Assembly: GCA_021776775.1 (NCBI GenBank)
Contig: JAJFFE010000145.1
Location: 30,884 to 94,883 of the forward strand
Length of the DNA stretch: 64,000 nucleotides
Direction of reading: 5' to 3'
Source: Planctomycetota bacterium
Lineage (GTDB): Bacteria > Planctomycetota > UBA8108 > UBA1146 > JAJFFE01
Shown: positions 4,990-36,482 of the stretch, one piece after another
How positions within the stretch are numbered: position 1 is the first letter of the stretch
Layout: each line of letters starts with the position of its first letter
The notes under the pieces: model-generated
The model's input: only the letters and a program-made list of their open reading frames with translations
Database searches by the model: none
Told to the model about the DNA's origin: nothing
Made by a program: the position numbers and the translations under genes

Positions 4990-5270
4990 TCGCCCCTCAG
5001 ATACCGCACACAGCCCGGTACGGATCACGCCGCCCAGCGAACATTGCTCATCGCCCAACACGCAGCCGCGAGCATCGGGCATCCTCGCTGCCCCTCGCCC
5101 CGAACCGACACGTTCGCGCTCCGATGCGCCCGTCCCTCGTTCTCAGCCGTGCTTGTTTGCCAAACCGCAACCCGGCGACCGACCTCACTCCCGTGCCTCA
5201 TAGTCGGTGGCGAGCCAGCGACTCGACCATCCCCAACCCACTGGTGTTCGAGCCACGCCACGATGTGCCC
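4990..5270 (+). repeat. ~285-bp dispersed repeat, copy 2 (more diverged in the 5' third)
   Basis: 5078-5270 aligns almost base-for-base with 29270-29459. It shares the terminal GGTGTTCGAGCCACGCCACGATGTGCCC. Confidence 0.75.
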
Positions 5271-5326
5271 GTCTCCTTCGTCTTCATCTCCCGCTGCGCG
5301 ACGTGATGGCCTCGCAACAGGACAGC

Positions 5327-5986
5327 TCAGATGGTTCGGCGAACCTCGACCACACGGCCGAGGATGCGAAACCCGCTCTTCGCCTCTGGGACGATGACTT
5401 CGTAGTTCGGGTTCTCTGGGTGGAGTTCGATGCGGCGACCACGACGGCGGAGTCGTTTGACGGTCGCTTCCGGTTCACCGCTTTCGCCGTCGATCAGGGC
5501 GACGACGATATCACCTGACTTTGCGGTGACCTGTTGTTTCACAATGACAACGTCCCCGGGCAGGATCGCAGCGTCGATCATGCTGTCGCCTTCGACTCGC
5601 AACGCGAAGTGATCGTCGGCCGCGCCGCTGGCGTCGAATGCGAGCACCCCGTCCGCGGTTTCGATCGCAACGTGCAGATCGCCGGCGTGCACGTGGCCCA
5701 CGAGTGGCACCCAACTGAGCGACGTGGTGGAGGTCTCGCCATCGAAGAGTTGCGGCAGTCGATAGCCGCGCGCACGGCCGGAGCGCTTGGTCAGCCGGCC
5801 TTCGGCGACGAGCTTCTCGAGGTGTTCACGCGCGGTTTGCACGGCGCGAAAACCGAACTCGCCCTGAACTTCACGGACGGTCGGCGACTCTCCACGCAGG
5901 AGCGAGTCCCGAACGAAGCGGAAGACACGCTCTCTCGTTTCGCCGGGTGGGGTTCGGGAAGACATGGGGAACATGGTACCAGACAC
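5327..5986 (-). CDS. lexA: LexA repressor (S24 peptidase)
   Basis: wHTH N-domain (ETRERVFRFV...TVREV), Ala-Gly cleavage region, and GDSM...VKRL Ser/Lys dyad. The likely true start is the internal ATG near 5965 (MSSRTPPGETRERVF). Confidence 0.85.
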   Translation of the reverse strand: MSGTMFPMSSRTPPGETRERVFRFVRDSLLRGESPTVREVQGEFGFRAVQTAREHLEKLVAEGRLTKRSGRARGYRLPQLFDGETSTTSLSWVPLVGHVHAGDLHVAIETADGVLAFDASGAADDHFALRVEGDSMIDAAILPGDVVIVKQQVTAKSGDIVVALIDGESGEPEATVKRLRRRGRRIELHPENPNYEVIVPEAKSGFRILGRVVEVRRTI

Positions 5987-9983: not shown

Positions 9984-10718
9984 TCACCGCTTCTTGGCCG
10001 TCTTCTTTCGAACGAACTTCTTGCGCGGAACCTTCTTGATTGCCATCTGCTTGCGCGGAGTGGCCCTCTTGCTGGCAACTTTCTGGGCCGAACGACTCGC
10101 CGGCTCGTTCGATGTAGGTGTGCTCGCCCGGACCGCGGTCTTCTTCTTGGCCACCTTCTTCTTGGCCACTGTCTTCGTCGCCGCCTTCTTGCTCGAGCTC
10201 TTCTTCGCGACCTTCTTGGCGGCGGCCTTCTTCTTCCCGACCTTCTTTGCCGCCTTCTTGCTCGCGGCTTTCTTGCTTCCCTTGGACGCCGTCTTCTTCT
10301 GGGCTTTCTTCTGGGCTTTCTTCTTTGCCTTCTTTGCCGCCGGTGTCGGTTGCGTCGCGGTAGCACTCGGATCACCTAGCTGCGCTAACACGCGCTTCGG
10401 CGCGATCAATCGGAAACTCTCATGCACGAGGGTTTCGATGTAGTGCCAGTCATCGACAGCGTTGGCGTCGACCGAGACCCATCCGTGTTTACCGACGTAG
10501 GCAGATTTCGTGAATCGTTCGTCGAGGCTGATCAGCTCCAACGCGTGATCCATCTCTAGCTTGAACCCGATGCTGCGCTTGTCGCCCTTCTCGCTGTACC
10601 CGGCGAAGATCTTGTCTTTCACGCGGAAGTGGGGATTACCCCAAGTCATCGTCTCTTGGGTCTCGGGCAACGCGAGACAGATGGATCGCATCTTGTTCAA
10701 AGCTGTTCCGCCGCGCAC
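9984..10718 (-). CDS. MmcQ/YjbR-family domain fused to a Lys/Ala-rich histone H1-like C-terminal tail
   Basis: N-terminal ~120 aa is ICLALPETQETMTWGNPHFRVKDKIFA...HGWVSVD (YjbR-like). The C-terminal ~120 aa is AKKAKKKAQKKAQKK...VAKKK repeats. Confidence 0.7.
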   Translation of the reverse strand: MRGGTALNKMRSICLALPETQETMTWGNPHFRVKDKIFAGYSEKGDKRSIGFKLEMDHALELISLDERFTKSAYVGKHGWVSVDANAVDDWHYIETLVHESFRLIAPKRVLAQLGDPSATATQPTPAAKKAKKKAQKKAQKKTASKGSKKAASKKAAKKVGKKKAAAKKVAKKSSSKKAATKTVAKKKVAKKKTAVRASTPTSNEPASRSAQKVASKRATPRKQMAIKKVPRKKFVRKKTAKKR

Positions 10719-12910: not shown

Positions 12911-13141
12911 TCTGGAACCCGGTCGGGGAGGTTGCAAGGCCACGGCCGCGGGCGGCGTCGAGATACACTGCCTGGGCGTCACGCCGCCACCGTGGTAGAA
13001 GACGTCGTGCTGCGCATGACTGCAGAAACACGCCTGTTGAGGAATCGAGTTGGGGTTTCGTTGCTCGGTAGATTCTTGAGAACCAAAGGGACCGCGGTCG
13101 CTCCGCACGAGCGCACGGGGCTTGTCAGCGGTGCCCGTCGC

Positions 13142-14122
13142 ATGGCGGCGCGCTGGGAATCCCTGGTTCACACTCCCCTCACCATTCGCTGTCGAGTTCG
13201 CGCCGCTCTGCGCGATTCGTCGCGACCGATCCTCGTCGGACCGTGGTGTTCCGAGGTTGGCTTCGAGTTGCTCTACTGGATTCCATTCCTGCGCAAGACA
13301 CTCGGCGACGCGGGTATCGACCCCGCCCGAGTCATCGCCGCCTCGCGAGGCGGTGCCGAGCCGTGGTACTCCGGTATTGCCGATACGTACTACGACTTGA
13401 TGGACGCCAAGTCCCACGCGGAGTACCTCTCGTACACGACAACTCGAGAAGCGCAGCAAGGCGTCAAGAAGCAGCTCGACCTCGTCGCGTGCGAAAGAGC
13501 GCTGATCAACGAGCTCTCGTCCGACTTCGAAGACCCGGTGGTTTTTCATCCATCGCTCATGTATCGACTCTTCGCCGCCGTATGGCGCGGAATGAAGCCG
13601 GTCGAATACGCCCTGGAGCGGTGCCACCACGTTCCGATGGATCGCAACCTGCCGCTGCCGGAAGGTTGCCCGTTCGGCGACGAGCCGTACGCGGCAATCA
13701 AGTTGTACCGATCCGACGCGTGGCCGCAGAACGAATCGAGCGCGGCGTTCGTACGAGACTTGCTCGCGAGTCTTGCGTCTCGCATGCCGGTGGTCGTCCT
13801 GCAAGCAGGGTTCGACATGGACGATCACCGCGATCACAGCCTGCCCGACGGGGTCCGCATCATCGACGCGTCGCCATGGATCGAACCGCGCACGAACCTT
13901 GCGGTACAGTCTGCTATCGTCGCGCACGCCAGCGAACTGCACACGACCTATGGCGGCTTTGCGTATCTCGGGGCGCTACTAGGAGTCCCGACGACCGCGT
14001 ACTACTCCAACGACGGGTTCGTGGCGGACCACCTCCAAGTGTCGAACCAGATTTTTTCGGGCCCTGGCTTCGCTGCTATTCGCGAGCGCCGCATCGTCGA
14101 TGGAGCACTGGCGTCCGAATGA
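13142..14122 (+). CDS. GT-B-like protein, paralog of the C-terminal half of the 23668..26724 protein
   Basis: ILVGPWCSEVGFELLYWIPF and TYGGFAYLGALLGVPT match VVIGPWMGEVGFEVLYWIPF and TYGGFSYLAPFYGVPS in the fused paralog. The start is uncertain (track 12932). Confidence 0.55.
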   Translation: MAARWESLVHTPLTIRCRVRAALRDSSRPILVGPWCSEVGFELLYWIPFLRKTLGDAGIDPARVIAASRGGAEPWYSGIADTYYDLMDAKSHAEYLSYTTTREAQQGVKKQLDLVACERALINELSSDFEDPVVFHPSLMYRLFAAVWRGMKPVEYALERCHHVPMDRNLPLPEGCPFGDEPYAAIKLYRSDAWPQNESSAAFVRDLLASLASRMPVVVLQAGFDMDDHRDHSLPDGVRIIDASPWIEPRTNLAVQSAIVAHASELHTTYGGFAYLGALLGVPTTAYYSNDGFVADHLQVSNQIFSGPGFAAIRERRIVDGALASE

Positions 14123-14150
14123 ACCTTCTCTCGAACGCTCGACGAGCCGC

Positions 14151-15632
14151 ATGAAACCGAAGACACCGCTACGCGTGTTGATCGTGCTTCAGTACCCGGG
14201 CTACCTACGGTACTTCGACTCCGTCATCGAAGAGCTGTCGCGCCGCGGCCACTCGGTCACGGTCTCGTTCGACAAGTTGGACAAACAGCGCGAAGGGCTG
14301 ATCGGTCTCGAGGCAATCCCGCGGGTCACCCGCATCGATACGATCTCGAATCGCCACGACGCGTTTCGGATCGTCGCGCGCGAGTTGCGCACCGTCATCG
14401 ACTACGTCCGTTACAAGCACCCCGACTTTCGAAGTTCGCCGTATCTCAGCGAACGAATGCGCGACGCGCTCCCGCGACCGCTGCGCTGGCTCGGCGGGTT
14501 GTCGACGCTGTCGCCGAAGACGGTCGATCGCACGATTCGTGGTCTTCTCTACCTGGAGAAGTGCATCCCGAGCTCTTCGCAAATTCGTGCAGCCATCGAG
14601 TCGGTCGCGCCCGACGTCGTCTTGGTCAGTCCTCTCGTCACCAAGGGATCTCCACAGGTCGACGTCGTCAAAGCGGCGCAAGCGTTGGGAGTGCCGTGCG
14701 CGTTGGGCGTCGGAAGTTGGGACCACCTGACGACGAAAGGGTTGGTGCGTATCGTTCCCGATCGCGTGTTCGTTTGGAACGAACTACAACGCGCCGAAGC
14801 GGTCAAGTATCACCAAGTCGAAGCGGGTCGCGTGAAGGTGACGGGCGCGCAAAACTTCGACAAGTGGTTCCACTGGCGGCCGGGGAGCTCGGCCGACGAA
14901 TTCCGCGCGAAGGTCGGCCTGCCCCCGGGCAAGCCGTACGTGCTCTTCGTCGGATCGACGGCGTCGATCTCCGCCCCGGACGCCGAGGTCGAGTGGGTGA
15001 CGGAGTGGCTACGTCAAATGCGCAGTCAAGACGCACCGCTCGCCAAGACGTCGGTGCTGATTCGTCCGCACCCGTACAATCTGGGTCGGTGGGACAAGGT
15101 CGACCTGTCGGAGTTCGCTAACGTCGCGGTCTATCCACGATTCCAAGCAAACCCGGTGGCGTCCGACGACCGCCAAGACTACTTCGACTCGATTCACCAC
15201 TCGGCCGCCGTCGTCGGCATCAACACGAGCGCCATGATCGAAGCGGCCATCCTCGACAAGCCGGTGCACACCATTCGCACGGAAGAGTTCGCACGCACGC
15301 AAGAAGGCACGCTGCACTTCCGCTACATGCTGCCTGAGAACGGCGGCTTCCTGAACGTCGCGGCGGACCCTGCCGAACACTTCGAGCAGCTCGCCAGCAA
15401 CCTCAAGGATCCAGAGACGAGCCGAGCGATCACGCAACGGTTTGTCCGCCACTTCCTGCGACCGCTCGGCATCCATCGAGACGCCACGCCGACCTTCGCC
15501 ACGCAGCTCGAACGGCTCGGCGCCCAGCAACCATCGCCGCGGCGCGATCGTACGATTGCCCATCCGGTCACCGCGATGTTTGCGCTCGCCGGCTTCGCGT
15601 TGAACGCACTGCGCCGACTTCGACGCGGCTAA
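14151..15632 (+). CDS. TagF-like CDP-alcohol phosphotransferase / GT-B protein, paralog of the N-terminal half of the 23668..26724 protein
   Basis: LGVGSWDHLTTKGLV, VVGINTSAMIEAAILDKPVHTIRTEEFARTQEGTLHFRY and LIRPHP match the fused paralog. The start is uncertain (track 14100). Confidence 0.6.
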   Translation: MKPKTPLRVLIVLQYPGYLRYFDSVIEELSRRGHSVTVSFDKLDKQREGLIGLEAIPRVTRIDTISNRHDAFRIVARELRTVIDYVRYKHPDFRSSPYLSERMRDALPRPLRWLGGLSTLSPKTVDRTIRGLLYLEKCIPSSSQIRAAIESVAPDVVLVSPLVTKGSPQVDVVKAAQALGVPCALGVGSWDHLTTKGLVRIVPDRVFVWNELQRAEAVKYHQVEAGRVKVTGAQNFDKWFHWRPGSSADEFRAKVGLPPGKPYVLFVGSTASISAPDAEVEWVTEWLRQMRSQDAPLAKTSVLIRPHPYNLGRWDKVDLSEFANVAVYPRFQANPVASDDRQDYFDSIHHSAAVVGINTSAMIEAAILDKPVHTIRTEEFARTQEGTLHFRYMLPENGGFLNVAADPAEHFEQLASNLKDPETSRAITQRFVRHFLRPLGIHRDATPTFATQLERLGAQQPSPRRDRTIAHPVTAMFALAGFALNALRRLRRG

Positions 15633-23667: not shown

Positions 23668-26600
23668 ATGATCGCTCCCCAACCTCCGAACGCTGACGCC
23701 GTGTCCGCGACCCCGTCGGTTTCGACGGGCGGCGCGACCGCTCCATCGAGACTCCATCTCGCGTTTTGCATGCGGCATTCGGGCTACTTACGACTTTACG
23801 AGTCTTTCCTCAGGGAACTCGCCGCACGCGGTCACACCGTTCATCTCGTGATCCGACAGTTCGACGCACTCTACGACGAGCGCGTGCTCGGAGCGCTCGA
23901 AGAAGAACTGGTGCCACACCTGACTTGGGAAGTACTCGACGAAACCCGTCTCGAGCCGGGTCGGCTGCTGCTGCGACTGCTGCGTTGCATGCAGGACTAC
24001 CTGCGTTACTTAGCCCCGGCGTACCGAACCGCGCACTCGCTGCGCGCGCGCGCAGCAACCCGCCTCCCACGAGTCGCGCGCGCTGTTTGCAACGTCGTCG
24101 GTCGATCGCAAGCGTTGAGCTGGGGGCTGATTCGACTCCTGCGCGGCGTCGACCAATGTGTCGGCGCCCCGACCTCACTCGTCGAATGGCTCGACGCCCG
24201 TCAACCCGACGCGCTGATCATCACACCGCTCGTCGACTTCGGGGCGACTCAGTTGCCGTGGATGAAGGCAGCGCGAGTCGCCAGCACACCGACCATTCTC
24301 GCCGTCGCGAGTTGGGACAATCTGACCAACAAGGGGTTGGTCCAGCTCGAACCCGACGGCGTCCTCTTGTGGAACCGCTTTCAAGAAAAGGAAGCGCGAA
24401 CCTTCCACCGGTTGACGCGGACACGCATTGCCACGACCGGTGCGCAAGTCTTCGATCCATGGTTCGCCATGAAGCCGTCGACGACCGAAACGGAGTTCCG
24501 CCAACGGGTGGGGCTCGAGCCCGATCGCAACCACCTGCTGTACCTGTGCTCTTCGCCTTTCATCGCCCCGGACGAGGTCTCTTTCGTGAAGCGTTGGCTC
24601 GACGCCTTGAGAAACTCGGATGCTCTCGGCGCGAAGACGGTCGGCGTGTTGATTCGGCCGCACCCACAGAATGCCACGCAGTGGGACGCGTTCGATGAAA
24701 CCGAGTACCCGAACGTCGCCGTTCACCCCCGCGGCGGGGCGACCCCGATTCACACCTCGACGAGAAACGACTTCTTCGACTCGATGGCGCACGCGCAAGC
24801 GGTCATCGGCATCAATACGAGCGCTATGATCGAAGCGGGCATCCTCGACAAGCCGGTGTTCACCATTCAAGACGACGACTTCGTGGCCACGCAGGAGGGC
24901 ACGCTTCACTACCACTACCTGGTCGACGGCGGTCTGCTGACAGTCGCCAACGACCTGCCGGAGCATCTCGACCAACTTCGGGGCACCTTGATCGGGGCCG
25001 ATCCCCAAGCGGAAGCGCGTCGTTCGTTCGTCGCGGAGTTCATTCGTCCGCACGGCTGGGAAACGCCGGCCGCCGAGGTATTGACCGACAGCGTGGAATC
25101 GATGACGGCCGAGCTGCGCGCTCATCCGCGAACGCCCAGCATCGGCGAACGAGTCGCCGCGCTCCCAAGTGGCGCGTCGAAAGCGCTCGCTCGCCACCCC
25201 CGCGCCGCGCTGTTGTTGACCGCGTTGGCGTTGCCATTCCTGACGCTCGGCCGCTGGATCGCCAGTTGGGGCAACAGTCGACGAGTGCTCCATCTTCTGC
25301 GCTGCGGACATCAACGCGACGCGGCGGCGATCCCCGATCCGTTGCTGTTCGGCGATCTCGTGCGAGCGCCCGGACGCAAGGTTTCCGTGCTGCTCAATGG
25401 ATCGATTGCTGCCCGCTGCCTCGGCGTGGCCCTGACGCCGTTGTTGCTCGTCGCGTTTTTCTTGGTGATCGTCTACGGCGCGGCCGTGGCCATCATCGAT
25501 CTCCCCTTCATGCTGGGGTACCCGCTGTTTCTGCTCTGCACTCGCTACCGCTCGCAACCACGAACATTGATCCGCCTCCTGATCGTCGGTCCGACCAAAG
25601 CGCGCACCAGCGCGAGCAAGCTGGACGCGATCCGTGATCCGATTCAGCTGCTCGACGCCATGGACCAACGCTGCTACGGAACGGCGCCGATATCAGCGGT
25701 GCTCAACAAGCTGCGCGCCAGCGATCGACCGGTCGTCATCGGACCGTGGATGGGTGAAGTCGGCTTCGAAGTTCTCTACTGGATTCCGTTTGTCTCATGG
25801 CTCTTGCGCGCGGCGAAGGTCGACAGCGACCGAGTTCATATCGCTTCGCGAGGCGGAACCGCGGAGTGGTATCAGGCGATCGGCGGCCGATACGAAGACC
25901 TGCTTGGCCACCACACGGTCGAAGAGTTCCGCGCGTTTCAGGACCGGCGGGTCCGCGAGATCGGACACCAAAAGCAGTCGAAGATCACCGGGGCTGATCG
26001 CTCGGCGCTGGCCCCTGTTCTCGACGCTTGGGATGTCCAGCAGTACGAGTTGGTGCATCCATCGATCATGTACGGCGTCTTCCGCCACTTCTGGTTCGGC
26101 GAGATGCCGCTACGCGCAATCGGCTTGCTGTGCGATTTCAAACGTCTCGAACACCACCGACCGGAGTGGAGCGTCGTTTCCGACTTGCCCGAACAATACG
26201 TCGCCATGAAGTTCTACTTCTCCGAGAGCTTCCCGGACACGTCCGAAACTCGTGCGTTCGTGCGCGACGTTCTGGAGACCGTGGCTCGACACAACAAGGT
26301 CGTGCTCCTCAACACGCAGTTGGAACTCGACGAGCACAAGGAACTGAGCGACGGAATACCCGAGAGTGTCTTGGTTCTGTCGAAGGAGATGCTTCCGCAC
26401 AACAACCTCGAGGTTCAAACCCAGGTGATCGCGGGGGCCAGTGCGTTCATCGGAACGTACGGCGGGTTCTCTTACCTCGCGCCCTTCTACGGAGTTCCGA
26501 GCTTCGCGTTCCATGCCAACGAAGACGGATTCGTGCCGGAGCATGTCGACACTGCTCACCTGGCGTTTCGAACGGCAAACGAACATGCCGCTCTTGCCGC

Positions 26601-26724
26601 GAACTTCACTATGTTCAGCACGCAACAGTGGAAAATCCTAGCCAGCTTCTTCGGTAGCGCCGCCGCCGCGAGCAAAGAAGAATGGCGACGACTTCCGAAT
26701 GACGTTTCCGCTCCGAAGCCTTAG
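23668..26724 (+). CDS. 1018-aa fusion of a TagF-like phosphotransferase/GT-B domain and a second GT-B-like domain (polysaccharide biosynthesis)
   Basis: The N-half is homologous to 14151..15632. The C-half is homologous to 13142..14122. A hydrophobic linker (LLLVAFFLVIVYGAAVAII) lies between the halves. Confidence 0.7.
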   Translation: MIAPQPPNADAVSATPSVSTGGATAPSRLHLAFCMRHSGYLRLYESFLRELAARGHTVHLVIRQFDALYDERVLGALEEELVPHLTWEVLDETRLEPGRLLLRLLRCMQDYLRYLAPAYRTAHSLRARAATRLPRVARAVCNVVGRSQALSWGLIRLLRGVDQCVGAPTSLVEWLDARQPDALIITPLVDFGATQLPWMKAARVASTPTILAVASWDNLTNKGLVQLEPDGVLLWNRFQEKEARTFHRLTRTRIATTGAQVFDPWFAMKPSTTETEFRQRVGLEPDRNHLLYLCSSPFIAPDEVSFVKRWLDALRNSDALGAKTVGVLIRPHPQNATQWDAFDETEYPNVAVHPRGGATPIHTSTRNDFFDSMAHAQAVIGINTSAMIEAGILDKPVFTIQDDDFVATQEGTLHYHYLVDGGLLTVANDLPEHLDQLRGTLIGADPQAEARRSFVAEFIRPHGWETPAAEVLTDSVESMTAELRAHPRTPSIGERVAALPSGASKALARHPRAALLLTALALPFLTLGRWIASWGNSRRVLHLLRCGHQRDAAAIPDPLLFGDLVRAPGRKVSVLLNGSIAARCLGVALTPLLLVAFFLVIVYGAAVAIIDLPFMLGYPLFLLCTRYRSQPRTLIRLLIVGPTKARTSASKLDAIRDPIQLLDAMDQRCYGTAPISAVLNKLRASDRPVVIGPWMGEVGFEVLYWIPFVSWLLRAAKVDSDRVHIASRGGTAEWYQAIGGRYEDLLGHHTVEEFRAFQDRRVREIGHQKQSKITGADRSALAPVLDAWDVQQYELVHPSIMYGVFRHFWFGEMPLRAIGLLCDFKRLEHHRPEWSVVSDLPEQYVAMKFYFSESFPDTSETRAFVRDVLETVARHNKVVLLNTQLELDEHKELSDGIPESVLVLSKEMLPHNNLEVQTQVIAGASAFIGTYGGFSYLAPFYGVPSFAFHANEDGFVPEHVDTAHLAFRTANEHAALAANFTMFSTQQWKILASFFGSAAAASKEEWRRLPNDVSAPKP

Positions 26725-26905: not shown

Positions 26906-27181
26906 CTACACGTGACAAGTTAACGTTGAACAGAAGTCGTGTAACGCCCCGACCAGGTTCTTCGCGTGGAGGCTTCTGACAGGCGGGTGGGGCGCATCGT
27001 GGCGTGGCTCGAACACCAAGTGCACCTGAAATGCCCGAATCTCCTCCGGCCCCATCCCCGAAGGACAACGCCCAAAGAACCGCGCAAACGCCGCAACACA
27101 CTCCACGTACCGACGAACCGTCACCTTCGAGTACTTCCGAAGCTGCATGTCCTCGATCATCCGCTGACGAAGCTGAGTCAT
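26906..27181 (-). pseudogene. intI: truncated integron-integrase-like tyrosine recombinase gene (intI-like). Only the N-terminal ~55 codons are intact.
   Basis: Strong RBS AAGGAG, 7 nt, then ATG. MTQLRQRMIEDMQLRKYSKVTVRRYVECVAAFARFFGRCPSGMGPEEIRAFQVHL matches the IntI N-terminal SAM-like pattern (R.YS..T..YV...F..F...P..MG..EI.AF..HL). The reading frame then enters the 28-bp repeat end (VFEPRHDAP...) and stops. Confidence 0.6.
26989..27018 (-). repeat. 28-bp terminal fragment of the ~285-bp repeat, located exactly at the intI truncation junction
   Basis: GGGCGCATCGTGGCGTGGCTCGAACACC is shared with the ends of repeat copies 1 to 3. Confidence 0.7.
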
Positions 27182-27426
27182 ACCATGACTCCTTTCCGCT
27201 TCGTCTGTCGGACAGATCCATCGAGTTGTATACTTGCGAGCGTAAACGGATGGTCAAGAGGGCGCCGCCCCAGAGCCTAGCGCGCAGCGCTTGAGTTCAA
27301 CTAGTCGCCGCAGCAGACCAAGGGCAGTCTTCCTTCTTCACCACCGGGTGTCACCGGGTCGCATCCGCCCGTACAATCCAAGCTTTCCCTAATGCTGCCC
27401 CTCGCAGCTGAGCTTCGACGTTAGGG
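27182..27426 (+). promoter_or_regulatory. attI-like / promoter region between intI start and first cassette core
   Basis: Perfect 13-bp palindrome TCTGTCGGACAGA at 27204-27216, just upstream of the intI start. TACAAT -10-like box at 27372-27377 faces the cassettes. First R' core GTTAGGG at 27420-27426. Confidence 0.4.
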
Positions 27427-27438
27427 GGACAACCGCAA

Positions 27439-27816: not shown

Positions 27817-27938
27817 CTCGTCGCTACCGACCAACGGGGCAGTAGCTTGTGCCACGTCGCGGTCACCCGCACAATGTCGCTTCGTCGAATCCAGTTTCAT
27901 CATCCGCTGCCCCCGGCAGCTGAGCTTCAACGTTGGAC
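27811..27938 (+). other. attC-like site 1 (128 bp): R'' CCCTAAC ... R' G|TTGGAC
   Basis: R'' is the exact complement of the upstream R' GTTAGGG. The 3' half (GCTGCCCCCGGCAGCTGAGCTTCAAC) is conserved with the other cassette junctions. Confidence 0.55.
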
Positions 27939-27945
27939 GGATCGA

Positions 27946-28362: not shown

Positions 28363-28366
28363 GACC

Positions 28367-28497
28367 GTCCAACACAGATGGCTTCTATACGAGATCGCCA
28401 AGCAATTGACGACACGACAAGGCCGCACCGACGTTGCCGAACGTGACAACGCAGACGGATAGAAGGTCGGCGGTCTCAGGGTAGAAGCGAGTTGGAC
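28367..28497 (+). other. attC-like site 2 (131 bp): R'' GTCCAAC (5 nt after stop) ... R' GTTGGAC
   Basis: Imperfect inverted repeat: GTCCAAC-acagatg-GCTTCTA-tac-GAGATCGCC ... GGCGGTCTC-aggg-TAGAAGC-ga-GTTGGAC. It has asymmetric unpaired bases, as attC bottom-strand hairpins do. Confidence 0.6.
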
Positions 28498-28634
28498 TCT
28501 GCCGCGGCGCGGTGTTCGGCTATGGAGTTTCTATTGAACGGAACTCTTGGTCGAACGCTTCGAAACGCCCGACGAGGTGGCGGCCAGGGTCGAGATGCGT
28601 TTGCGCATCGGGGAACGCCACTCACTTGTTCCAT

Positions 28635-29057
28635 TCATCCCTCGATCGGGATTCGCGTGGACCGGTGGTTCGTTGAGCCCCGTGTTGTTGGGTACAGGGT
28701 CACTGGATGTCGTGCCGCGTGATACTGAGGTCGCGGCTCGCGTACTCCGGTTGGTTGATCGATGGGTCCTGCCGACTTACGCGACGCGGCGATCTTTGAA
28801 CGCATGAACTCAGTTCCGAACTCCCGTTCCGCGTACCAAGCGTTGTGTGTTGGGCAGAGGGCTCGCAGGTTGATCTCGTCATTCGAGCCGTCCTTGCTGA
28901 ACGGAACCAAGTGATCGATCTGAAGGCCTGTTCGCACGCCACAGCGATGCTGATCACGGCCGACGAATTCGCACCGCTGCCCGGCTTGGTGGAGCACTCG
29001 CTCACGTGTTTCACTTGGAATGTATCGGGATCGTTCCTTGGCCTTTGCAGAGTCCAA
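28635..29057 (-). CDS. HNH endonuclease (inside cassette X, opposite orientation)
   Basis: CEFVGRDQHRC...LQIDHLVPFSKDGSNDEINLRALCPTHN is an HNH/Cys4 motif. Confidence 0.7.
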   Translation of the reverse strand: MDSAKAKERSRYIPSETRERVLHQAGQRCEFVGRDQHRCGVRTGLQIDHLVPFSKDGSNDEINLRALCPTHNAWYAEREFGTEFMRSKIAASRKSAGPIDQPTGVREPRPQYHAARHPVTLYPTTRGSTNHRSTRIPIEG

Positions 29058-29177
29058 GCCGTCAGAACTGGGCGAAACCTCGATGAAAACCCTGTCAAAC
29101 GAAACACGACAAAGTTCTAAAATTCATCGCGCGAAGCTGAATCCAAAACAGACGAACCACCGCGACCGCCAAACCTC

Positions 29178-29459
29178 GCCCGGACGGGGTGCCCATCCGC
29201 ATCTCCGACAGGGATCACATAGCCCCAGCCAACATCCACATATCCCACCGACACCCAACGGAGTCGGGCCCACCCGCTGCCCCTCGCCTGGAACAGAATG
29301 GTTCACGCCCCGATGCGCCCGTCCCTCGTTCACACCCGTACTTGTTTGCCAACCCGCGACCCGGCGACCAACGCCACTCCCGTCCCTCATAGTCGGTGGC
29401 GAGCCATCGACTCGACCATCCCCAACCCACTGGTGTTCGAGCCACGCCACGATGCGCCC
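29178..29459 (+). repeat. ~285-bp dispersed repeat, copy 3 (inside cassette X)
   Basis: Aligns with the reverse complement of 4360-4650 and with 4990-5270. Confidence 0.8.
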
Positions 29460-29652
29460 GTCACCTGCTTCAGGTCGCATGCGACCGTTTGCAGTGTTGG
29501 CACCGCCGCGTCGAACAAGAGCGTGTGCATCGACTTCGGATTGCCGAGCGCGATGGGACGCAACTGTTCCGGCAACGTGAACAGCGCGTGGGAGTCAGGC
29601 ATCATGAAATCACGTCGCGCGGCACTACCGCGCAGCGGTTGGGTTCAACTCG

Positions 29653-29772
29653 GCGCGGCAGCCGACAAAGGGCGTCTGCTCTCTTCAGTGCCAGGTGCTC
29701 TCGGCCCACATCCTCGGTTACAATCCACGCTCTAACGAATGCTGCCCCGGCAGCTGATCTTCAACGTTAGGC
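29653..29772 (+). other. attC-like site of cassette X (tentative): R'' GTTCAAC ... R' G|TTAGGC
   Basis: R'' is 6/7 complementary to the R' (GTTGGAC) that opens cassette X. The conserved 3' half is GCTGCCCCGGCAGCTGATCTTCAAC. Confidence 0.35.
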
Positions 29773-29776
29773 GGAG

Positions 29777-30220
29777 ATGAGCGAGGAGCGTGGGAAACAA
29801 GACAAGCCTGGGTGGACTGGGTCGTATGACCACAACAATGGTCGAACCGCGGCCACGGTCGAGCTCCTGTGTGAGTCCACCCAACTGGCAGCGGACTCTC
29901 GCTTTCAGGACTTCGCCAATCAGCTTGCCCAGCACGTGGCCGCCCTTGATCCCATCGCGCTGTCCACTGACGACATTCCCGAGGCTGTGTCCCGAATCCG
30001 CAGCGAGCTCTCTCGCACGTATGCGGACAAGCCGGGTGAGATTCGGGAGAAGCTTGTCGCAGCAAAGGCCCAGCTCTACGCAACCAACTCGTGCCTTCTC
30101 GACCAGAAGTGGGTGTTCGAGGACGAGCGCAGTGTTCGTGAAGTGTTGGAGCATTACGGCCAACGCTTCGGGGAACAGCTCTCTGTTGGGGCGTTCTCTC
30201 GAACAGAACGGTCCGCCTAA
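29777..30220 (+). CDS. cassette ORF 3: truncated EF-Ts paralog (core/dimerisation domain only, no N-terminal EF-Tu-binding UBA-like domain)
   Basis: Colinear match to the EF-Ts core: TAATVELLCESTQLAADSRFQDFANQLAQHVAA...KPGEIREKLVAAKAQ...LLDQKWVFEDERSVREVLEHYGQRFGEQLSVGAFSRTE. The stop TAA is inside GCCTAAC, the complement of the upstream GTTAGGC. Confidence 0.65.
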   Translation: MSEERGKQDKPGWTGSYDHNNGRTAATVELLCESTQLAADSRFQDFANQLAQHVAALDPIALSTDDIPEAVSRIRSELSRTYADKPGEIREKLVAAKAQLYATNSCLLDQKWVFEDERSVREVLEHYGQRFGEQLSVGAFSRTERSA

Positions 30221-30399
30221 CTAACCGGTCGCCGCAACAGCCACGGGTCGGTTACCTCTCCCCGCGGTCGGTTTCACCGTTTCGACGTTGGATCGCGCCG
30301 CCGGCTCGCTACGTTCACGTTGCTCGGTAACCGCGCCGGCAGCCGCGTGTCCACTTTTCCTCGGTGAGGTCCGCGCTTTGGACAGTCCGCTCGAGTCAG

Positions 30400-30801
30400 T
30401 CAGTTGGTGAAGCTTCCCTCGAAGACGATGGGGTACTCCGCGGCGTGGCCCGCCTCGAACTTCACCTCGCCGGACAGTCCCGCGAGTTCGCCGTAGCCCG
30501 AGTCGGCAATCACGTCCCACACCGAGTTCACGACCCCCTCGTGAAAGCTCCCGGTGTGACGAAAGACAAACCCTCCGCTCTTACCGTTGAGCGATCCCTT
30601 GAACTGCTCGACACCGACGAACTCCGCGTGCTCGGCGTTGACGTACACCATGAGGTAGTCGACATCGCCGGTGCCATCGAGCCCTCCCGAGTACGTCTTA
30701 CTAACAGACGCTTTGGTAACGCGACGATCCTTGTCCGGGGCTCCGGACACTTCCTCCTCCCATGAAGCGATCACAAAGGTCGACTCGATCTTTAAGGACA
30801 T
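30400..30801 (-). CDS. DUF3224 domain protein
   Basis: ~133 aa. YLMVYVNAEHAEFVGVEQFKGSLNGKSGGFVFRHTGSF fits the DUF3224 pattern. Confidence 0.55.
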   Translation of the reverse strand: MSLKIESTFVIASWEEEVSGAPDKDRRVTKASVSKTYSGGLDGTGDVDYLMVYVNAEHAEFVGVEQFKGSLNGKSGGFVFRHTGSFHEGVVNSVWDVIADSGYGELAGLSGEVKFEAGHAAEYPIVFEGSFTN

Positions 30802-30811
30802 GACCGTGGAC

Positions 30812-31171
30812 TCACTTCTTGTAACGGGGTTGGTACAACTGAACGCGAAGATCGCCGGGCATCTTGAAGTACGTCGCTAGCCCGTAGCCCATATCTTGAA
30901 CTGCGTCCGTGAACTCGACGCCGCGTTCCTTCATCTCCGCCATCGTCGCTTCGACATCGTCACAGTAGAACGAAATATCGTGCGTGCCGTTGGGCCGACC
31001 TTCTTTGCCCGACTCGTCCGAGGGGTGGACGCCCATGTCTGCTTCAGGCATGTCGAAGATCAACCACCCGCCACCGACATCCGTCGCGGAGAAACCCAGC
31101 TTGTCACGGAGAAACTCACGGAGCGCCTCGGCTTTCGACGAGTAGAACATCGTGTGTACGCCACGAATCAT
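30812..31171 (-). CDS. VOC (glyoxalase/bleomycin-resistance) family protein
   Basis: Short βαβββ module: FYSSKAEALREFLRDKLGF...GTHDISFYCDDVEAT. Confidence 0.6.
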   Translation of the reverse strand: MIRGVHTMFYSSKAEALREFLRDKLGFSATDVGGGWLIFDMPEADMGVHPSDESGKEGRPNGTHDISFYCDDVEATMAEMKERGVEFTDAVQDMGYGLATYFKMPGDLRVQLYQPRYKK

Positions 31172-31374
31172 GGCAGTGCCCTTTCAACTCGTTGGCCGGC
31201 TGCGGCCAAGAGAGGTGGGCGATTGTCGTTCGAGGTCGCCGAGGCGTCTAGTCACGAAAAGTTGAATCGGTCCATCGGCGGCGTGACGCGCCGATAGAGT
31301 CTGCGCTAGGACTAGCGTATCATCGCAGCACGACTCACGGCCACGAACTGACCTCTCTCGAGTAGCAACGCGAA

Positions 31375-33405
31375 GTGTCCATGTCTGAATTGTTCGACCC
31401 TGATCTGACGGAGCCTTCTCTCGAATGGAGAGATGGCGCCCCCTTGTCGACCGAGTTTGACGATGTGTATTTCTCCAACAGCGGCGGACCGGAGGAAACA
31501 CGACACGTGTTTCTCACCGGCAACGGCTTGCCGCAGCGATGGAGCGGCAGAACCCACTTCGTAATCGGCGAGACCGGGTTCGGAACCGGGCTCAACTTCA
31601 TCGAGACGTGGCGGGCTTGGCGGTCGGATCCCGAGAGCTGCACTCGACTTCATTTTCTTTCGGTGGAGAAGCACCCGATCAGTCGGGAGTTGCTGAGTCG
31701 CGCCCTTCGCGCGCATCCTGAGCGCGAGCTGGTGGACGACCTCATTGCAAAGTATCCGGTTCGCTGCCCCGGCTTTCACCGGGTGGAGTTCGAGTCCGGT
31801 CGGGTGGTCTTGACGCTGCTGTTCGGCGACGTGCTCACCATGCTGAGTCGAATCGGCAACGGCGCAGGGAGAACGGTCGACGCGTGGTTTCTGGACGGGT
31901 TCACTCCTTCGCGCAATCCCGAGATGTGGTCGATCGACGTGTTTCGCGAGATCGCTCGCCTGTCACGTACGGGCGCAAGTTTCGCCACGTTTACCTCGGC
32001 GGGTTTCGTGCGTCGCGGACTCGAGCAAGTCGGGTTCGATGTCAGGAAGTGCAAGGGGTTTCGCCACAAGCGGGAGATGGCGCACGGAGAGTTCAAGACG
32101 GTGTCCGGTTGCGATGAATCGTCAAAGCCGTGGCACCGGTGGCCGGCGGCGCCGACCGCAACGCAAGCACTGGTCGTCGGCGGCGGCTTGGCCGGCACCG
32201 CGACCGCTCGCGCTCTCAGTCTCCGGGGGTTTGACGTCACGCTATTGGAACGTCACGACGACATAGCGACCCAAGCGTCGGGAAGTCCGGCGGGTATCTA
32301 TCACGCCGACCTCATGCGTGAGTGCACGCCGCGCGAACGACTCTTCACGGGGGCGGTCGGCTTCACGGCCCGTCGGCTGCAGAGCTACTTCGATGGTACA
32401 TTGGACGTCGCCGGAGCGCCGTGTGGGGCGGTGCACCCCGTGACCTCCGCGAAGCGCGCGCAACACCACCGCGACGTGACGGAACGACGCGCCGTCTTTC
32501 CCGAATTCGTAGAGTGGCTATCGCCGGACGAGGCGAGCGATGTCGCCGGGCTTGCCATCGAACAGCCGGCACTCTTCTACCCGCAAGCGGGCTGGGTATG
32601 CCCGGCCGATGTGTGCCGTGCAAACATCGAGTCGGGACACGAGGTTCGCGTGCGTACCGGGACCCACGTGGCCGGGCTCGAACGGGTAGGCGATCGTTGG
32701 GTGGCGACGAACGACGAAGGCGACGTTGTCGGAGAAGCTCCGATCGTGGTGATTGCGACCGCCGGCGACGCGCTTCACCTTCCGATCGTCAACTGGCTTC
32801 CGTTGCGACAACTGCGTGGGCAGATCACTCGCGTCGAAGCGACCGCGGCCAGCGACCGCCTACGTTCAGTCGTCTACTACGAAGGGTATGCCACGCCGAG
32901 CCACGACGGATTTCACACACTGGGCGCCACGTTCGATCACGACTCGGTCGACGTCACGGTCCGCGACGAAGACCACGTCGCCAATCTCGACCGCCTCTGC
33001 GAAGGTTTCCCGGCACTTCATTCCTCGCTGGCGACACGGTCGGCACGTCGCGTGGGACGCGCAGCGCTACGAGCCGTCTGCCCCGATCACCTTCCCATGA
33101 TTGGACCGGTCCCCGACGAAGCACGGTTCCGCCGCCAGTACGACGGCTTGCGGTTCGGGCGATCGATCGACGAGCAGTCGCCGGCGCCGGTTCTGCCCGG
33201 GCTGTACGTGTCGGTCGGTCACGGCTCCCGCGGGATTGTCTCGAGCCAGTTCGGCGCGGAGATCATCGCCAGCCAGATTGCCGGCGACCCCATGCCGACG
33301 GAGCGGGGAATCGTCGACGCCCTGACTCCGGGCCGTTTCCTGGTTCGCTCGCTGGCGCGCGGCGGCGGCGACGGCCACGCCGAGGCTGACGAAGACGACG
33401 GCTAA
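31375..33405 (+). CDS. mnmC: bifunctional tRNA 5-methylaminomethyl-2-thiouridine biosynthesis protein MnmC (methyltransferase + FAD oxidase)
   Basis: N-terminal EFDDVYFSNSGG...WFLDGFTP (MnmC1/DUF752). C-terminal FAD-binding VVGGGLAGTATA and DAO-type oxidase. Confidence 0.8.
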   Translation: MSMSELFDPDLTEPSLEWRDGAPLSTEFDDVYFSNSGGPEETRHVFLTGNGLPQRWSGRTHFVIGETGFGTGLNFIETWRAWRSDPESCTRLHFLSVEKHPISRELLSRALRAHPERELVDDLIAKYPVRCPGFHRVEFESGRVVLTLLFGDVLTMLSRIGNGAGRTVDAWFLDGFTPSRNPEMWSIDVFREIARLSRTGASFATFTSAGFVRRGLEQVGFDVRKCKGFRHKREMAHGEFKTVSGCDESSKPWHRWPAAPTATQALVVGGGLAGTATARALSLRGFDVTLLERHDDIATQASGSPAGIYHADLMRECTPRERLFTGAVGFTARRLQSYFDGTLDVAGAPCGAVHPVTSAKRAQHHRDVTERRAVFPEFVEWLSPDEASDVAGLAIEQPALFYPQAGWVCPADVCRANIESGHEVRVRTGTHVAGLERVGDRWVATNDEGDVVGEAPIVVIATAGDALHLPIVNWLPLRQLRGQITRVEATAASDRLRSVVYYEGYATPSHDGFHTLGATFDHDSVDVTVRDEDHVANLDRLCEGFPALHSSLATRSARRVGRAALRAVCPDHLPMIGPVPDEARFRRQYDGLRFGRSIDEQSPAPVLPGLYVSVGHGSRGIVSSQFGAEIIASQIAGDPMPTERGIVDALTPGRFLVRSLARGGGDGHAEADEDDG

Positions 33406-33623
33406 CCTGCGCCAAGGAGGCTTCTTAGAAGATTGCGCCAGCCGCGCTTCACATCGGACGGGTGCCATCCCACTCCAGGTGAACGATTCCCACGTTTCGG
33501 GGGTCGTCTCGGCGTGCGAAGATGCACGATATACCGATATCGAGGCGGGATCGGCATCCCGCGGCGACGCTTCACGTGCCGACCTGGCGCGCGGGGGTTT
33601 CGGGCTCAAATCGGAGTGGTGGC

Positions 33624-36482
33624 ATGTCTCGACTCAATGCGCGACCGGTGCGCGAAATCCCGGACACCGAATTGATCGCGCGAACGCTAGCGGGTGATCG
33701 TGACGCGTACGGCGACCTCGTCGGCCGTTACCTCGACACGAGCTACGCCGTGGCGTACGGACTGACCGGCTGCCGTTCGGACAGCGACGACTTGGTTCAG
33801 GAGGCGTTCCTCGGAGCGTTCCAGGGACTCGGTCGGTTGCAGTCGCCCACTAAGTTTGGTGCCTGGCTGACCGGTATCCTTCGACGGCTAGATGCGAATC
33901 GCCGCCGCACCGCTCGACGACGTCGCGAAGTCATGCGCGATTACTCCGACCACCGACCGTCGGTGAGCGATGTCGATGGGCCCGTCGACGAACACGATGA
34001 AGAGTTGTGGCGTTCGATCCATGGTCTCCCGGATGAACTTCGCGTTCCGTTGGTGCTGTTTTACTTCGAAGGAGAGTCGACCGCGGCGGTCGCGGAGCGT
34101 CTCAATTTGGAACCGGCGACGGCCCGCAAGCGAGTCCAACTCGCCAGAGATCGGCTGCGCGAACGGTTGCATACGGATCCGCGGGCGCCGCTCGCTCGAC
34201 CCGAACTCAAGCGACTGCGTCCGTCTCGCGCGTTGCGGACAGCGATCGCGTTGACGATTGCAGCCGCCCCGTTCGGTGCCGAAGCGTCGGCCGCCGTGGA
34301 CCCGTCGCTGTTCGCCGACCGATCGCTAGGAGGTTGGCAGGAACCGTTCGGCGGTGCCTTCCCGATCAAGGTCGCGGCGGCGGCTCTGTTCGCGATTGGT
34401 TTGACGTTACTCATCGTCGCCGTGCGCGAAGACTCCGCCGTCCCGTTACCGCAACCGCAGTCGGCACGATCACCCGTTGCAAGTCGCGACGCGACGCCCG
34501 AACGTCAGTCGACGGCGGCCGACAACAGCGTGAGCGCATGGCAGCCGGCTCCCGTACAAGCAGCGCACGCGCCGACCACCCCGCCCCCGTCGACCCCCAA
34601 TGTCACTCGCACCGCCCAAATCCGCGGGACCGTTCGCATGGCAGACGGCTCGCCATTGGTCTGCCGACAGGTCTTCCTGGGGGAAAGCCGACAACCGTGG
34701 GCACGAGCGGAGTCCGCGTCGCTCGACGAGTCTGGGACGTTCCATTTCAACGTCGACAGTGAGGAAGACCGCTGGATCTACCTGCTGCTCGACCACGCGC
34801 TGGTCTGTCCGCGCGATTCGTGGGTACGACCGAGCTTCTCGCTGGAGAAGCAGCTAGACATTGTGGTCGAACCCGGCGTCACGCTGTCCGGCGTGATCGT
34901 GGACCCCGACGGTCATCCGGTTCGTCGAGCGCGCGTCACGTTGGAAACGTCGGAGCCCAATCAGCAGGGCGAAGCGCTCATCGAAACGAACCGGGACGGG
35001 GAGTTCGAAATCCCCCACGTCCCGGTCGGTGAGTACCAGATGTCGATATCACACGCCCAGCACTCTCGGCATCTCGAGCGAATCCAACTTCGCGGCGACG
35101 TCCGCCGAAACTGGACGCTGCAGCCTCCGCGAGTGTTGAAGTTGACGATCGCGGGACTGCCGGCCGAATCCCGAGAGTCGGTGATCCGCTTCTCGTTGAA
35201 GCAGCGCGACGCCGGGCTCGCGGCCGACGTGCTAGCGCACCGGGAAGAGCTACTGTTTCACGGAACACCCGACTCGACCGGCACGATGACGCTCCAGGCG
35301 CCGCCGCCCGGCGTGTGGACCGGCACCTTCTACAAGACTCTCCCGAAGCGCCGTTTCGAGTTGGTGATTCCTGAATCGGGGGACGAGGTCCACGCGACCG
35401 TCGACTTGGCCGTCGGCGCAGTGTTGAGCGGTTTGGTTCGAGTTGTGGGAGGCAGCGTATTGACCGAAGCGGTACTCGTTGACGTCTCTGGTCGAGGCGG
35501 ACGCGGCGCCCAACTGCGCACCCCGATCGAAGTGTTGACGAGCTCTTCGACGCCGATCCTCAAGTACACCCAAACCGGAGTTCCCGCTGGCGGCTACCTG
35601 GCCGGAGTCAAACAGTGGATCGCCGGCCACCCCGCAAACACGGACCAGCCCGAGTGGATCTTCTACGGCACCGAACGACTGCAACTCGACGGATCCGAAT
35701 CTCACACGCTCGACCTGACGCTACCGACAACCCAGCCGGTTCATGTCACGCTGTCCCCCGAGAGTTCGACGAGATCCACCTCGTTCACCGCGTTGACGAT
35801 TACGCCGGTCGCGGTGCCGGGATTGTTCACGTTCACCTTCGAAGACGGTGCGGTGGAACCGGCGGCACACATCGGGGCGCTGGGGCTGGTAGCGAGCCAT
35901 CGCGTTGCGGTGTTCGATCATCTTCCCCCTGGGCGCTACCAAGTGTCCGCGATGATCGACGGCGTTCGCACCCGGCCGACGCAGATCAACGTCGGCGACG
36001 CTGGGCAAGCACCGGTGATCGTGGAACTCGCTTTTCCGCAGTTCGTGCGCGTCGAGCTTTCCGTCGAGAGCACGTACCTGCCGAGCCGACTGCTGGTCCA
36101 ATGCCCGCCAGCTCCGACCTCGGATCGATTCTCGAGTTCCCGCGCTTGGTTCGAGGAGTACTCGAGATGGCTCGCTGGCGCGCTGGTCCGCGATCGCGTG
36201 GATCCGGAGTTCTCGAGTAGCGCAACCGTTCATCACTTCGGACGCCCGTACAACGACTTCGTCGTAGGGTGGCACTACTGGCGGTCGTTAGTGGTCCGCG
36301 ATGTGAAGTTCGAGGGCAATCTTCACGTCGGATCGAGCGGGCGCGCAACCTTGGAGTTTCCAGCCCACGCCCCGGACGACGCGATCGTGCGCATTCAGGC
36401 GCCCGGGTTCGACGCGATCGAGATGCGGGTGCGCGAACTGCTCGAGTACCAGGACTCACCCGTGCCACTCTTCCTCAAGTAG
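33624..36482 (+). CDS. ECF sigma-70 factor fused to a TM helix and a ~700-aa extracytoplasmic domain with carboxypeptidase-regulatory-like repeats
   Basis: GGAG Shine-Dalgarno then ATG 33624. Region 2 LVQEAFLGAF and region 4 EGESTAAVAERLNLEPATARKRVQLARDRLR. TM segment IKVAAAALFAIGLTLLIVAV. The track ORF 33522 over-extends at the 5' end. Confidence 0.7.
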   Translation: MSRLNARPVREIPDTELIARTLAGDRDAYGDLVGRYLDTSYAVAYGLTGCRSDSDDLVQEAFLGAFQGLGRLQSPTKFGAWLTGILRRLDANRRRTARRRREVMRDYSDHRPSVSDVDGPVDEHDEELWRSIHGLPDELRVPLVLFYFEGESTAAVAERLNLEPATARKRVQLARDRLRERLHTDPRAPLARPELKRLRPSRALRTAIALTIAAAPFGAEASAAVDPSLFADRSLGGWQEPFGGAFPIKVAAAALFAIGLTLLIVAVREDSAVPLPQPQSARSPVASRDATPERQSTAADNSVSAWQPAPVQAAHAPTTPPPSTPNVTRTAQIRGTVRMADGSPLVCRQVFLGESRQPWARAESASLDESGTFHFNVDSEEDRWIYLLLDHALVCPRDSWVRPSFSLEKQLDIVVEPGVTLSGVIVDPDGHPVRRARVTLETSEPNQQGEALIETNRDGEFEIPHVPVGEYQMSISHAQHSRHLERIQLRGDVRRNWTLQPPRVLKLTIAGLPAESRESVIRFSLKQRDAGLAADVLAHREELLFHGTPDSTGTMTLQAPPPGVWTGTFYKTLPKRRFELVIPESGDEVHATVDLAVGAVLSGLVRVVGGSVLTEAVLVDVSGRGGRGAQLRTPIEVLTSSSTPILKYTQTGVPAGGYLAGVKQWIAGHPANTDQPEWIFYGTERLQLDGSESHTLDLTLPTTQPVHVTLSPESSTRSTSFTALTITPVAVPGLFTFTFEDGAVEPAAHIGALGLVASHRVAVFDHLPPGRYQVSAMIDGVRTRPTQINVGDAGQAPVIVELAFPQFVRVELSVESTYLPSRLLVQCPPAPTSDRFSSSRAWFEEYSRWLAGALVRDRVDPEFSSSATVHHFGRPYNDFVVGWHYWRSLVVRDVKFEGNLHVGSSGRATLEFPAHAPDDAIVRIQAPGFDAIEMRVRELLEYQDSPVPLFLK

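Follow-up and report, generated by a model that had tools for sequence, protein, structure and literature searches.

Introduction

The DUF222-HNH repeats of mycobacteria and other Actinobacteria, known as the REP13E12 family, have no defined function (PMC13061034, PMC10589994). In Mycobacterium tuberculosis they are abundant, serve as hotspots of gene conversion and have been described as sequences that 'lack defined biological function' (PMC13061034). Integron integrases are reported to have their closest relatives among the tyrosine recombinases of IS91 elements (bioRxiv 10.1101/542381).

Here we analysed a 64,000-nucleotide stretch of the Planctomycetota contig JAJFFE010000145.1 (the window), in which one unit of an integron-like array, cassette X, carries a minus-strand HNH open reading frame (ORF) beside a long repeat. 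The ORF and the repeat belong to what we call the HNH element, and the REP13E12/DUF222-HNH repeat family is the closest known thing to it. Our results argue, with good but incomplete confidence, that cassette X, one unit of the array, was put together from pieces of decayed mobile DNA.

Results

Boundaries of cassette X in the integron-like array

Six GTTRRRY-type cores were found in the array, at 26925, 27420, 27932, 28491, 29766 and 30287. The units between them measure 495-560 bp with the exception of cassette X, which measures 1275 bp. Cassette X occupies 28492-29766, between the G/TT crossover points of GTTGGAC (28491-28497) and GTTAGGC (29766-29772). The initial annotation of this DNA had drawn the unit at these limits and had placed it in an integron-like cassette array, and both statements agree with our results. 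The unit is atypical in size (1.27 kb versus about 500-560 bp for its neighbours) and in its antisense content. The features discussed below are collected in Table 1.

According to the circular-permutation rule, each cassette starts with a core that is complementary to the inverse core (RYYYAAC) of its own attC. The rule was exact (7/7 positions) in four of the five cassettes, namely C0 (start core GTTGAAC, inverse core GTTCAAC), C1 (GTTAGGG, CCCTAAC), C2 (GTTGGAC at 27932-27938, GTCCAAC at 28367-28373) and C4 (GTTAGGC, GCCTAAC). In cassette X, the inverse core GTTCAAC agreed with the reverse complement of the start core at 6 of 7 positions. If each site has four free positions, three exact core matches alone would arise by chance with a probability of about 6e-8. 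This rule is the strongest evidence that the units of the array are cassettes.

At least two attC sites in the same orientation within 4 kb bound short units that mostly hold one gene, as in clusters of attC sites lacking integron integrases (CALIN). A plus-strand ORF with its stop in or beside the inverse core was present in three of the four units other than X; the remaining one, C0, contains minus-strand debris only. Cassette X itself has no plus-strand ORF with a Pfam match and no promoter consensus. Its left 155 bp show no similarity, left of about 28647, to other copies of the HNH element, and may be a leftover of the original cassette content. The attC of X is 76% identical over 153 bp (BLAST) to the attC at 27277-27429, which belongs to C0, and the two are the most alike pair of the array.

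The array is not a textbook integron. No tyrosine-recombinase catalytic motif was found in any frame of the 64 kb, hence the window has no integron integrase, and an IntI with its extra domain next to an attI, as in a complete integron, was not found. The sole recombinase sequence in the window, of the IS91-companion type, is limited to 58 N-terminal codons. A long imperfect end-to-end hairpin, the shape expected of a single-stranded attC (R''-L''/L'-R' with extrahelical bases), was obtained in the single-stranded fold of 28366-28500 only (z about -2.2, both strands). Pending a proper attC model, we treat the array as an attC cluster without integrase, that is, the CALIN category (PMC4889954). 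The databases contain no close relative of the organism (the nearest MnmC is 50% identical), so there was no orthologous array for a synteny comparison.

The same sites could be explained without any integron array. The 36-150-nt sites would then be ends of IS91-like elements or a local repeat of the repetitive extragenic palindromic (REP) kind, and X would be intergenic debris. The missing integrase fits this explanation, as do the four of five sites without the canonical attC hairpin fold and the finding that the two most similar sites each adjoin an IS91-element gene fragment in the same orientation. We nevertheless consider it unlikely, because the circular-permutation rule holds exactly in four of the five units, because three of the four non-X units, about 500-560 bp each, carry plus-strand ORFs that stop in or near the inverse core, and because the 36-nt 3' end is also present at the site 27906-27941, which has no IS91 sequence nearby.

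The cassette after X (29777-30220) encodes an unusual cargo, a 147-aa orphan domain resembling the dimerisation/core region of EF-Ts (Pfam EF_TS, E=4e-19).

The HNH ORF and its protein family

The minus-strand ORF of cassette X has the complete signature of the HNH superfamily, namely the Cys pairs, the catalytic His (DH) and the N...HN of the beta-beta-alpha-metal motif (CEF..C....DH...N....C..HN). It matched Pfam HNH (PF01844) with E=4.7e-6 and 27.1 bits (cut-off 21.4), which bears out the HNH nuclease gene that had been proposed from the CEF motif. A family profile built from 44 full-length members matched it with E=8e-47. The ORF aligned to residues 199-334 of P0125, a protein of 345 aa. 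Homology of the remnant to P0001 and P0125 begins at IEVSPSSDG (29084), beyond which lies filler with a stop codon, and the alignment of X with a second element copy in the window (locus A) terminates at GCGATGAAT.

The remnant is 75-93% identical to P0001-3, P0124 and P0125. P0001-3 are three close relatives (82-92% identity) from a word-indexed search. All five are HNH copies on other contigs, and each has a different internal deletion; P0003 has lost the catalytic DH.

An exhaustive search of representative proteins gave about 2000 relatives at E<=1e-10. Many of the top matches are 340-470 aa long and carry the HNH domain at the extreme C-terminus. In full-length members, a helical N-terminal domain (...LIAHLAEI.RRKLHLELGY.SLFDYC...) is followed by a VSSG(I/V)R linker, a second helical block (FNFRF...KLERLAEVLGV...) and the HNH domain. 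Among 38 family members, Pfam DUF222 was matched in 5 (best E=1e-4) and HNH in 36. The layout of helical N-terminus plus HNH, together with the DUF222 matches, which are weak across the family, therefore identifies the architecture as the one known from the DUF222-HNH (REP13E12) proteins of Actinobacteria.

What the X ORF has lost can be read from the close copies P0001-3, P0124 and P0125 and from the full-length relatives P0126-P0129. About 185 N-terminal residues of at least 345 are missing, including the DUF222-like domain and the middle helical domain, and the promoter region and one arm of the element are also gone. A DUF222-HNH protein has an N-terminal DUF222 and a C-terminal HNH domain in about 350-500 aa, and the X ORF holds the HNH part only. 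Judged from these alignments, the ORF is the C-terminal third of a DUF222-like/HNH protein of 350-470 aa. We call it a remnant because the N-terminal domains and the promoter region are gone relative to its full-length relatives.

The HNH gene is clearly no conserved chromosomal gene, since it is multi-copy and occurs in varied contexts. A scan of genome contigs with the HNH alignment gave one distant gammaproteobacterial locus only. In metagenomes, a 22-mer of the arm matched by chance at three places inside unrelated genes and revealed no further copies, and scans of viral contigs gave chance or generic HNH matches only.

The repeat is an inverted arm of the HNH element

The initial annotation had recorded a copy of a 285-bp repeat at 29178-29459. 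The repeat is real and its actual extent is longer (29122-29463). BLAST aligned 29122-29462 to 4698-4357 with 85% identity over 344 bp (E=1e-104), and 29264-29466 to 5075-5277 with 88% identity. A further, inverted piece of 29 bp (26990-27018) repeats 29431-29459 without a mismatch. The X arm has its outer end at 29460-29463. Its inner end runs into the linker region of the gene, and the overlap with the linker coding sequence is limited to the innermost 20-70 bp or so.

The 20-nt motif GACGGGCGCATCGKGGCGTG occurs twice in the X arm (29443-29462 and 29304-29323). It sits at the tip of every arm and again 139 bp inward. Seven matches were counted in the window versus 0.06 expected, including those at 4357, 4497, 5115 and 5254 in locus A. 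Transposon ends that carry repeated binding sites typically show such a terminal motif with a subterminal second copy.

The outer boundary, GGGCRCATCRTGG..., is constant against at least five unrelated flanks. These are the IS91 transposase fragment in X, intergenic DNA and the lexA side in locus A, the 5' region of an integrase in the locus of P0124, and two unrelated flanks in P0279 and P0280. The arms thus have inverted ends, a sharp constant outer boundary and varied flanks, as terminal inverted repeats do. No direct repeat flanks locus A or the first element of L009, hence no target-site duplication was seen at either. A proposal that the outer flank of P0279 is an integrase C-terminus gained no support from BLASTP.

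We also considered a structured RNA in the repeat. The arm had no Rfam match, either at gathering thresholds or at E<=1, and no fold signal (z-scores +0.2 and +0.7), and the RNAalifold covariation term was -0.04. These results ruled the candidate out. As there is no RNA signal and the arms occur in both orientations, a function at the DNA level is likelier than one of RNA. The idea that the repeat is a degenerate copy of the N-terminal domain (GMVESMARHRL versus GVLESLARNRM by eye) was not supported by the family profile from 44 sequences with filters off.

The palindrome CTCGTCCGGACGAG or near variants bracket the HNH gene, at 4634-4647, 4827-4840 and 29175-29188 in the window and at 152-165 and 1817-1830 in the contig L018. 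It accounts for the recurrent peptide (S/P)RPDEV in the linkers and tails of many family members, and could act in cis or mark a hotspot of the internal deletions. Enrichment of the palindrome across the window was rejected (3 matches versus 1.6 expected), though all three matches lie in element copies.

Arm and gene form one unit

Locus A is a second, internally deleted copy of the element with both ends. Its neighbours are an ORF at 3470-4207 (minus strand) and a lexA-like gene at 5327-5986 (minus strand), and it lies outside any array. In P0124, a gene call on another contig, the arm (GRIVAWLEHQWVGDGRV...) is read through into the HNH part. P0213 is a distant relative whose HNH region is about 40% identical (55/140 aligned residues). 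It reads past the stop region into the 3' arm, with a translation ending in ...NPLVFEPRHEAP versus NPLVFEPRHDVP in the window, and its 3' arm ends in ...PNPLVFEPRHEAP versus ...PNPLVFEPRHDVP. The unrelated ENA contig L009 has an intact gene of 355 aa (553-1620), preceded by an AT-rich promoter-like region, between the inverted arms 13-272 and 1647-1909. These arms, about 260 bp each and 79% identical to each other, are homologous to the window arms and have the blocks GGCGTGGCTCG, GGCTCGCCACC and TCTGTTCCGGGCGAGGGGC in common with them.

The pairing of arm and gene recurs in X, locus A, P0124, P0213 and L009, which shows that the two are one multi-copy unit. The intact element is roughly 1.9 kb, with inverted arms of 260-350 bp around a single DUF222-like/HNH gene. 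When the window was compared with P0213 and L009, the arms appeared better conserved across lineages than the protein, which suggests a cis-acting role for them.

Long arms are not universal in the protein family. The contig L008 has an intact family gene (P0233) with no detectable arms, and L018, of a third lineage, has only an 18-nt perfect palindrome on either side of the gene.

An alternative is that the repeat is an independent sequence of about 285-345 bp, similar to a miniature inverted-repeat transposable element, that landed by chance beside an unrelated HNH gene. The solo 29-bp terminus at 26990-27018 without HNH sequence would suit it, and P0279 and P0280 show arm sequence that may or may not run on into an HNH gene. 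The evidence against it makes it very unlikely. In X, locus A and P0124 the arm adjoins HNH sequence, each time with the same relative orientation; P0213 has a 3' arm behind its gene and L009 has an arm on either side, though the HNH regions are only about 40-55% identical; and the innermost arm overlaps the linker coding sequence of the gene.

Two further arrangements were observed on these contigs. Two tandem copies of the intact element, spaced by 1941 bp, occupy L009 1-3650. Their first 300 bp are 96% identical, and most of the 3' arm is missing from the second copy. L018 5-100 contains seven tandem copies of the 14-nt unit GCGGGTGGCCGCGT upstream of the gene of another family member.

IS91 debris in cassettes X and C0

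The initial annotation had called the HNH gene the only convincing gene of cassette X. This holds in so far as no plus-strand ORF has a Pfam match, but a minus-strand IS91 transposase fragment had been missed. The fragment matched NCBIfam transpos_IS91 with E=7.7e-8 (profile positions 89-131 of 356) and the IS91 ORF of L007 with E=7e-7 (tblastn). An IS91-family element has a full HUH/Y2 transposase and the ends oriIS and terIS; here there is a fragment only.

Cassette C0 carries the start of an IS91-companion recombinase, 55-57% identical to plasmid integrases. In L007, the IS91 transposase ORF directly follows the integrase. In C0, the recombinase fragment is joined to the solo arm tip, and this fusion (26990-27181) may have arisen by deletion or be the footprint of an excision. 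In the locus of P0124, an arm tip is joined to the 5' region (about codon 10) of the IS91-companion integrase that is also fragmentary in C0. The Logan contig L005 (SRR15505515), assembled independently from the same organism, corresponds to 29554-35519 with 99.98% identity. It breaks off within the IS91 fragment, which is consistent with the sequence there being repeated in the sample.

C0 and X may be diverged duplicates, as their attC sites are the most similar pair and their IS91 fragments have the same orientation. Paralogy of their left flanks was rejected, since the local alignment was no better than shuffles (19/500 as good). A putative integrase remnant at 28459-28560 (resembling integrase residues 56-84) was non-significant (E=1.5).

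Other features of the window

A 1018-aa ORF without a Pfam match (23668-26724) has stretches of 65-153 nt, 77-78% identical, in common with 12932-15632. The latter region lies 10 kb upstream and holds two adjacent ORFs in swapped order relative to the 1018-aa ORF, that is, a paralogous pair or a fusion. A Lys/Ala-rich, histone H1-like ORF with 12/15-nt periodic repeats (AAGAAG-type codons) is located at 9984-10718 on the minus strand.

Table 1. Positions of the features of cassette X, cassette C0 and locus A in the window
Feature	Position	Strand	Description
attC2 (attC of the preceding cassette)	28367-28497	+	inverse core GTCCAAC 28367-28373, core GTTGGAC 28491-28497
Left part of cassette X, 155 bp	28492-28646		ORFs without Pfam match
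HNH ORF	28635-29057	-	140 aa, TTG start, motif CEF...C...DHLVPFSKDGSNDEINLRALCPTHN
DUF222-like/HNH gene remnant	28635-29084	-	about residues 188-334 of the 345-aa P0125; in-frame homology beyond the ORF to 29084
Filler at the internal deletion junction of the element, 37 bp	29085-29121	-	in-frame stop at about 29120
5' arm of the HNH element	29122-29463	-	BLAST to 4357-4698 and 5075-5277
IS91-family transposase, internal fragment of 43 codons	29474-29602	-	about residues 92-134, abuts the outer arm end
attC of cassette X	29625-29772	+	inverse core GTTCAAC 29643-29649, core GTTAGGC 29766-29772
Solo 29-bp arm tip joined to the recombinase fragment	26990-27018	-	junction microhomology CAC-T-GGTG
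IS91-companion tyrosine recombinase, first 58 codons	27019-27181	-	unit C0; tblastn with L006/L007 integrases E=1.5e-15
Locus A, second element copy, both ends, internally deleted	4348-5277	+	inverted repeats; tblastn of P0124/P0125
Locus A 5' arm	4348-4698		92% complementary to the 3' arm
Locus A 3' arm	about 5020-5277		inverted
Locus A gene remnant, N-terminal linker	4698-4814		matches P0125 residues 57-95
Locus A gene remnant, C-terminal tail	4774-4866		native stop after ...STRIPSGRGLRHRLVM

Discussion

Our results favour the reading that cassette X is an enlarged unit filled with decayed mobile DNA; it is probably dead and not a homing cassette. Read along the minus strand, the unit would begin with its attC, followed by 43 codons left over from an IS91-family transposase. 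Next would come the 5' arm of the HNH element, which is transposon-like and measures about 1.9 kb, then the C-terminal third of the single DUF222-like/HNH gene of this element, and lastly 155 bp of unassigned sequence. Cassette X may originally have been two cassettes. The HNH element would have inserted into an IS91 copy that already resided in the cassette, and the likeliest reason for this is that one element nested in the other in a neutral 'safe haven'. Later deletions would then have trimmed both the HNH element and the IS91 element, leaving the 140-aa ORF as a presumed relic without a role in cassette recombination. A secondary insertion of a small mobile repeat had been suggested for this unit. 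Mobile DNA did arrive secondarily, and the repeat turned out to be the HNH element's own arm.

Several points weigh against this reading. The HNH catalytic motif in X is intact, and diverged copies keep the HNH domain better (85-91%) than the tail (53-68%), therefore the nuclease has been under selection, at least formerly. X could still encode a short, functional HNH protein. The close HNH copies are on other contigs, which may not belong to the same genome as the window. The array has a single canonical attC hairpin, the other four attC sites folding into local hairpins only. Mobility was deduced from copy number and varied flanks, and neither a target duplication nor an empty site nor an excision product was seen.

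A functional selfish or homing cassette, as the initial annotation had proposed, in which the 140-aa HNH protein expressed from the bottom strand would cut attC or empty sites and so spread or retain the cassette, would draw on this intact motif, on the conservation of the HNH domain above the tail and on short HNH-only family representatives such as P0130 and P0135, but it is highly improbable, because the TTG start of the ORF comes directly after the deletion junction and an in-frame stop, the N-terminal domains of all full-length relatives are absent, X has no promoter consensus, the element ends (28647 and 29463) lie 155 and 303 bp from the cassette boundaries (28492 and 29766), other copies are outside any array (locus A beside lexA, for example), the sibling P0003 lacks the catalytic DH, and nothing ties the nuclease to attC.

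For the integron, the composite reading means that the odd cassette would be a dump of nested mobile-element fragments with no nuclease role in recombination. A by-product of the analysis is the element of about 1.9 kb, with two long inverted arms and one DUF222-like/HNH gene, that occurs across diverged lineages. In intact members of the family, the DUF222-like/HNH protein would most likely recognise the arm termini and mobilise or maintain the element, by cut-and-paste or by double-strand-break homing. We tentatively propose that the arms and the gene may make up an undescribed family of autonomous bacterial transposons, so far in Planctomycetota-type genomes. The HNH nuclease would then be the only protein encoded by the element, instead of a DDE, HUH, serine or tyrosine enzyme, and might act on the arm termini (GGCGTGGCTCG..., 20-nt motif), inserting or homing without target duplication.

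The locus can be compared with several known systems. The array resembles CALIN (Cury et al. 2016, PMC4889954) in being made up of attC-bounded units that lack an integrase in their vicinity. Insertion sequences nested in cassette arrays offer a second parallel, as in both cases mobile elements lie in cassettes, the affected cassette is enlarged and its content is antisense. However, the intruders here, an IS91-type integrase/transposase element and the HNH element, lie outside the IS1111/IS110 group that targets attC, and both are present as fragments. The integrase fragment (55-57% identity) and the transposase fragment (NCBIfam transpos_IS91) match the IS91 family with companion tyrosine recombinase. 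In contrast to intact IS91 elements, only 58 codons of the integrase and 43 of the transposase are left, each in a cassette of its own, and no IS91 ends were identified.

The HNH element also resembles the IscB/HEARO (OMEGA) systems, in that a conserved non-coding region, about 345 nt long and sharply bounded on its outer side, precedes the HNH ORF. The X ORF matched NCBIfam guided_IscB weakly and through the HNH domain only (E=1e-6, 28 bits; cut-off 175). Unlike IscB, which has RuvC and HNH in one protein next to a structured omega-RNA, the X ORF has no RuvC or PLMP domain, the region has no Rfam HEARO match even at E<=1, and it shows neither fold signal nor covariation. The conserved region is inverted at both ends of the element, unlike in IscB/HEARO, which points to a role at the level of DNA and not of RNA.

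The likeness to REP13E12 is closer. Both are multi-copy genomic repeats of about 1.3-1.9 kb, both have an ORF with a DUF222-type helical N-terminus and a C-terminal HNH domain, and in both the copies are often frameshifted or deleted. There are also clear differences. The host here is of the Planctomycetota type, the named family members are proteins of Planctomycetota metagenome-assembled genomes, and most members lie below the Pfam threshold for DUF222. No prophage attachment site is implied for the HNH element. The elements here are bounded by long inverted arms (260-350 bp), whose termini are conserved and in which a 20-nt motif is repeated; to our knowledge, and within a limited literature search, such arms are not described for REP13E12. 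The element family thus appears to be undescribed. A version with clear ends provides a direct handle for testing whether DUF222-HNH nucleases mobilise their own DNA, and if the proposed transposon family is real, it would also suggest the nature of the enigmatic REP13E12/DUF222-HNH repeats of Actinobacteria.

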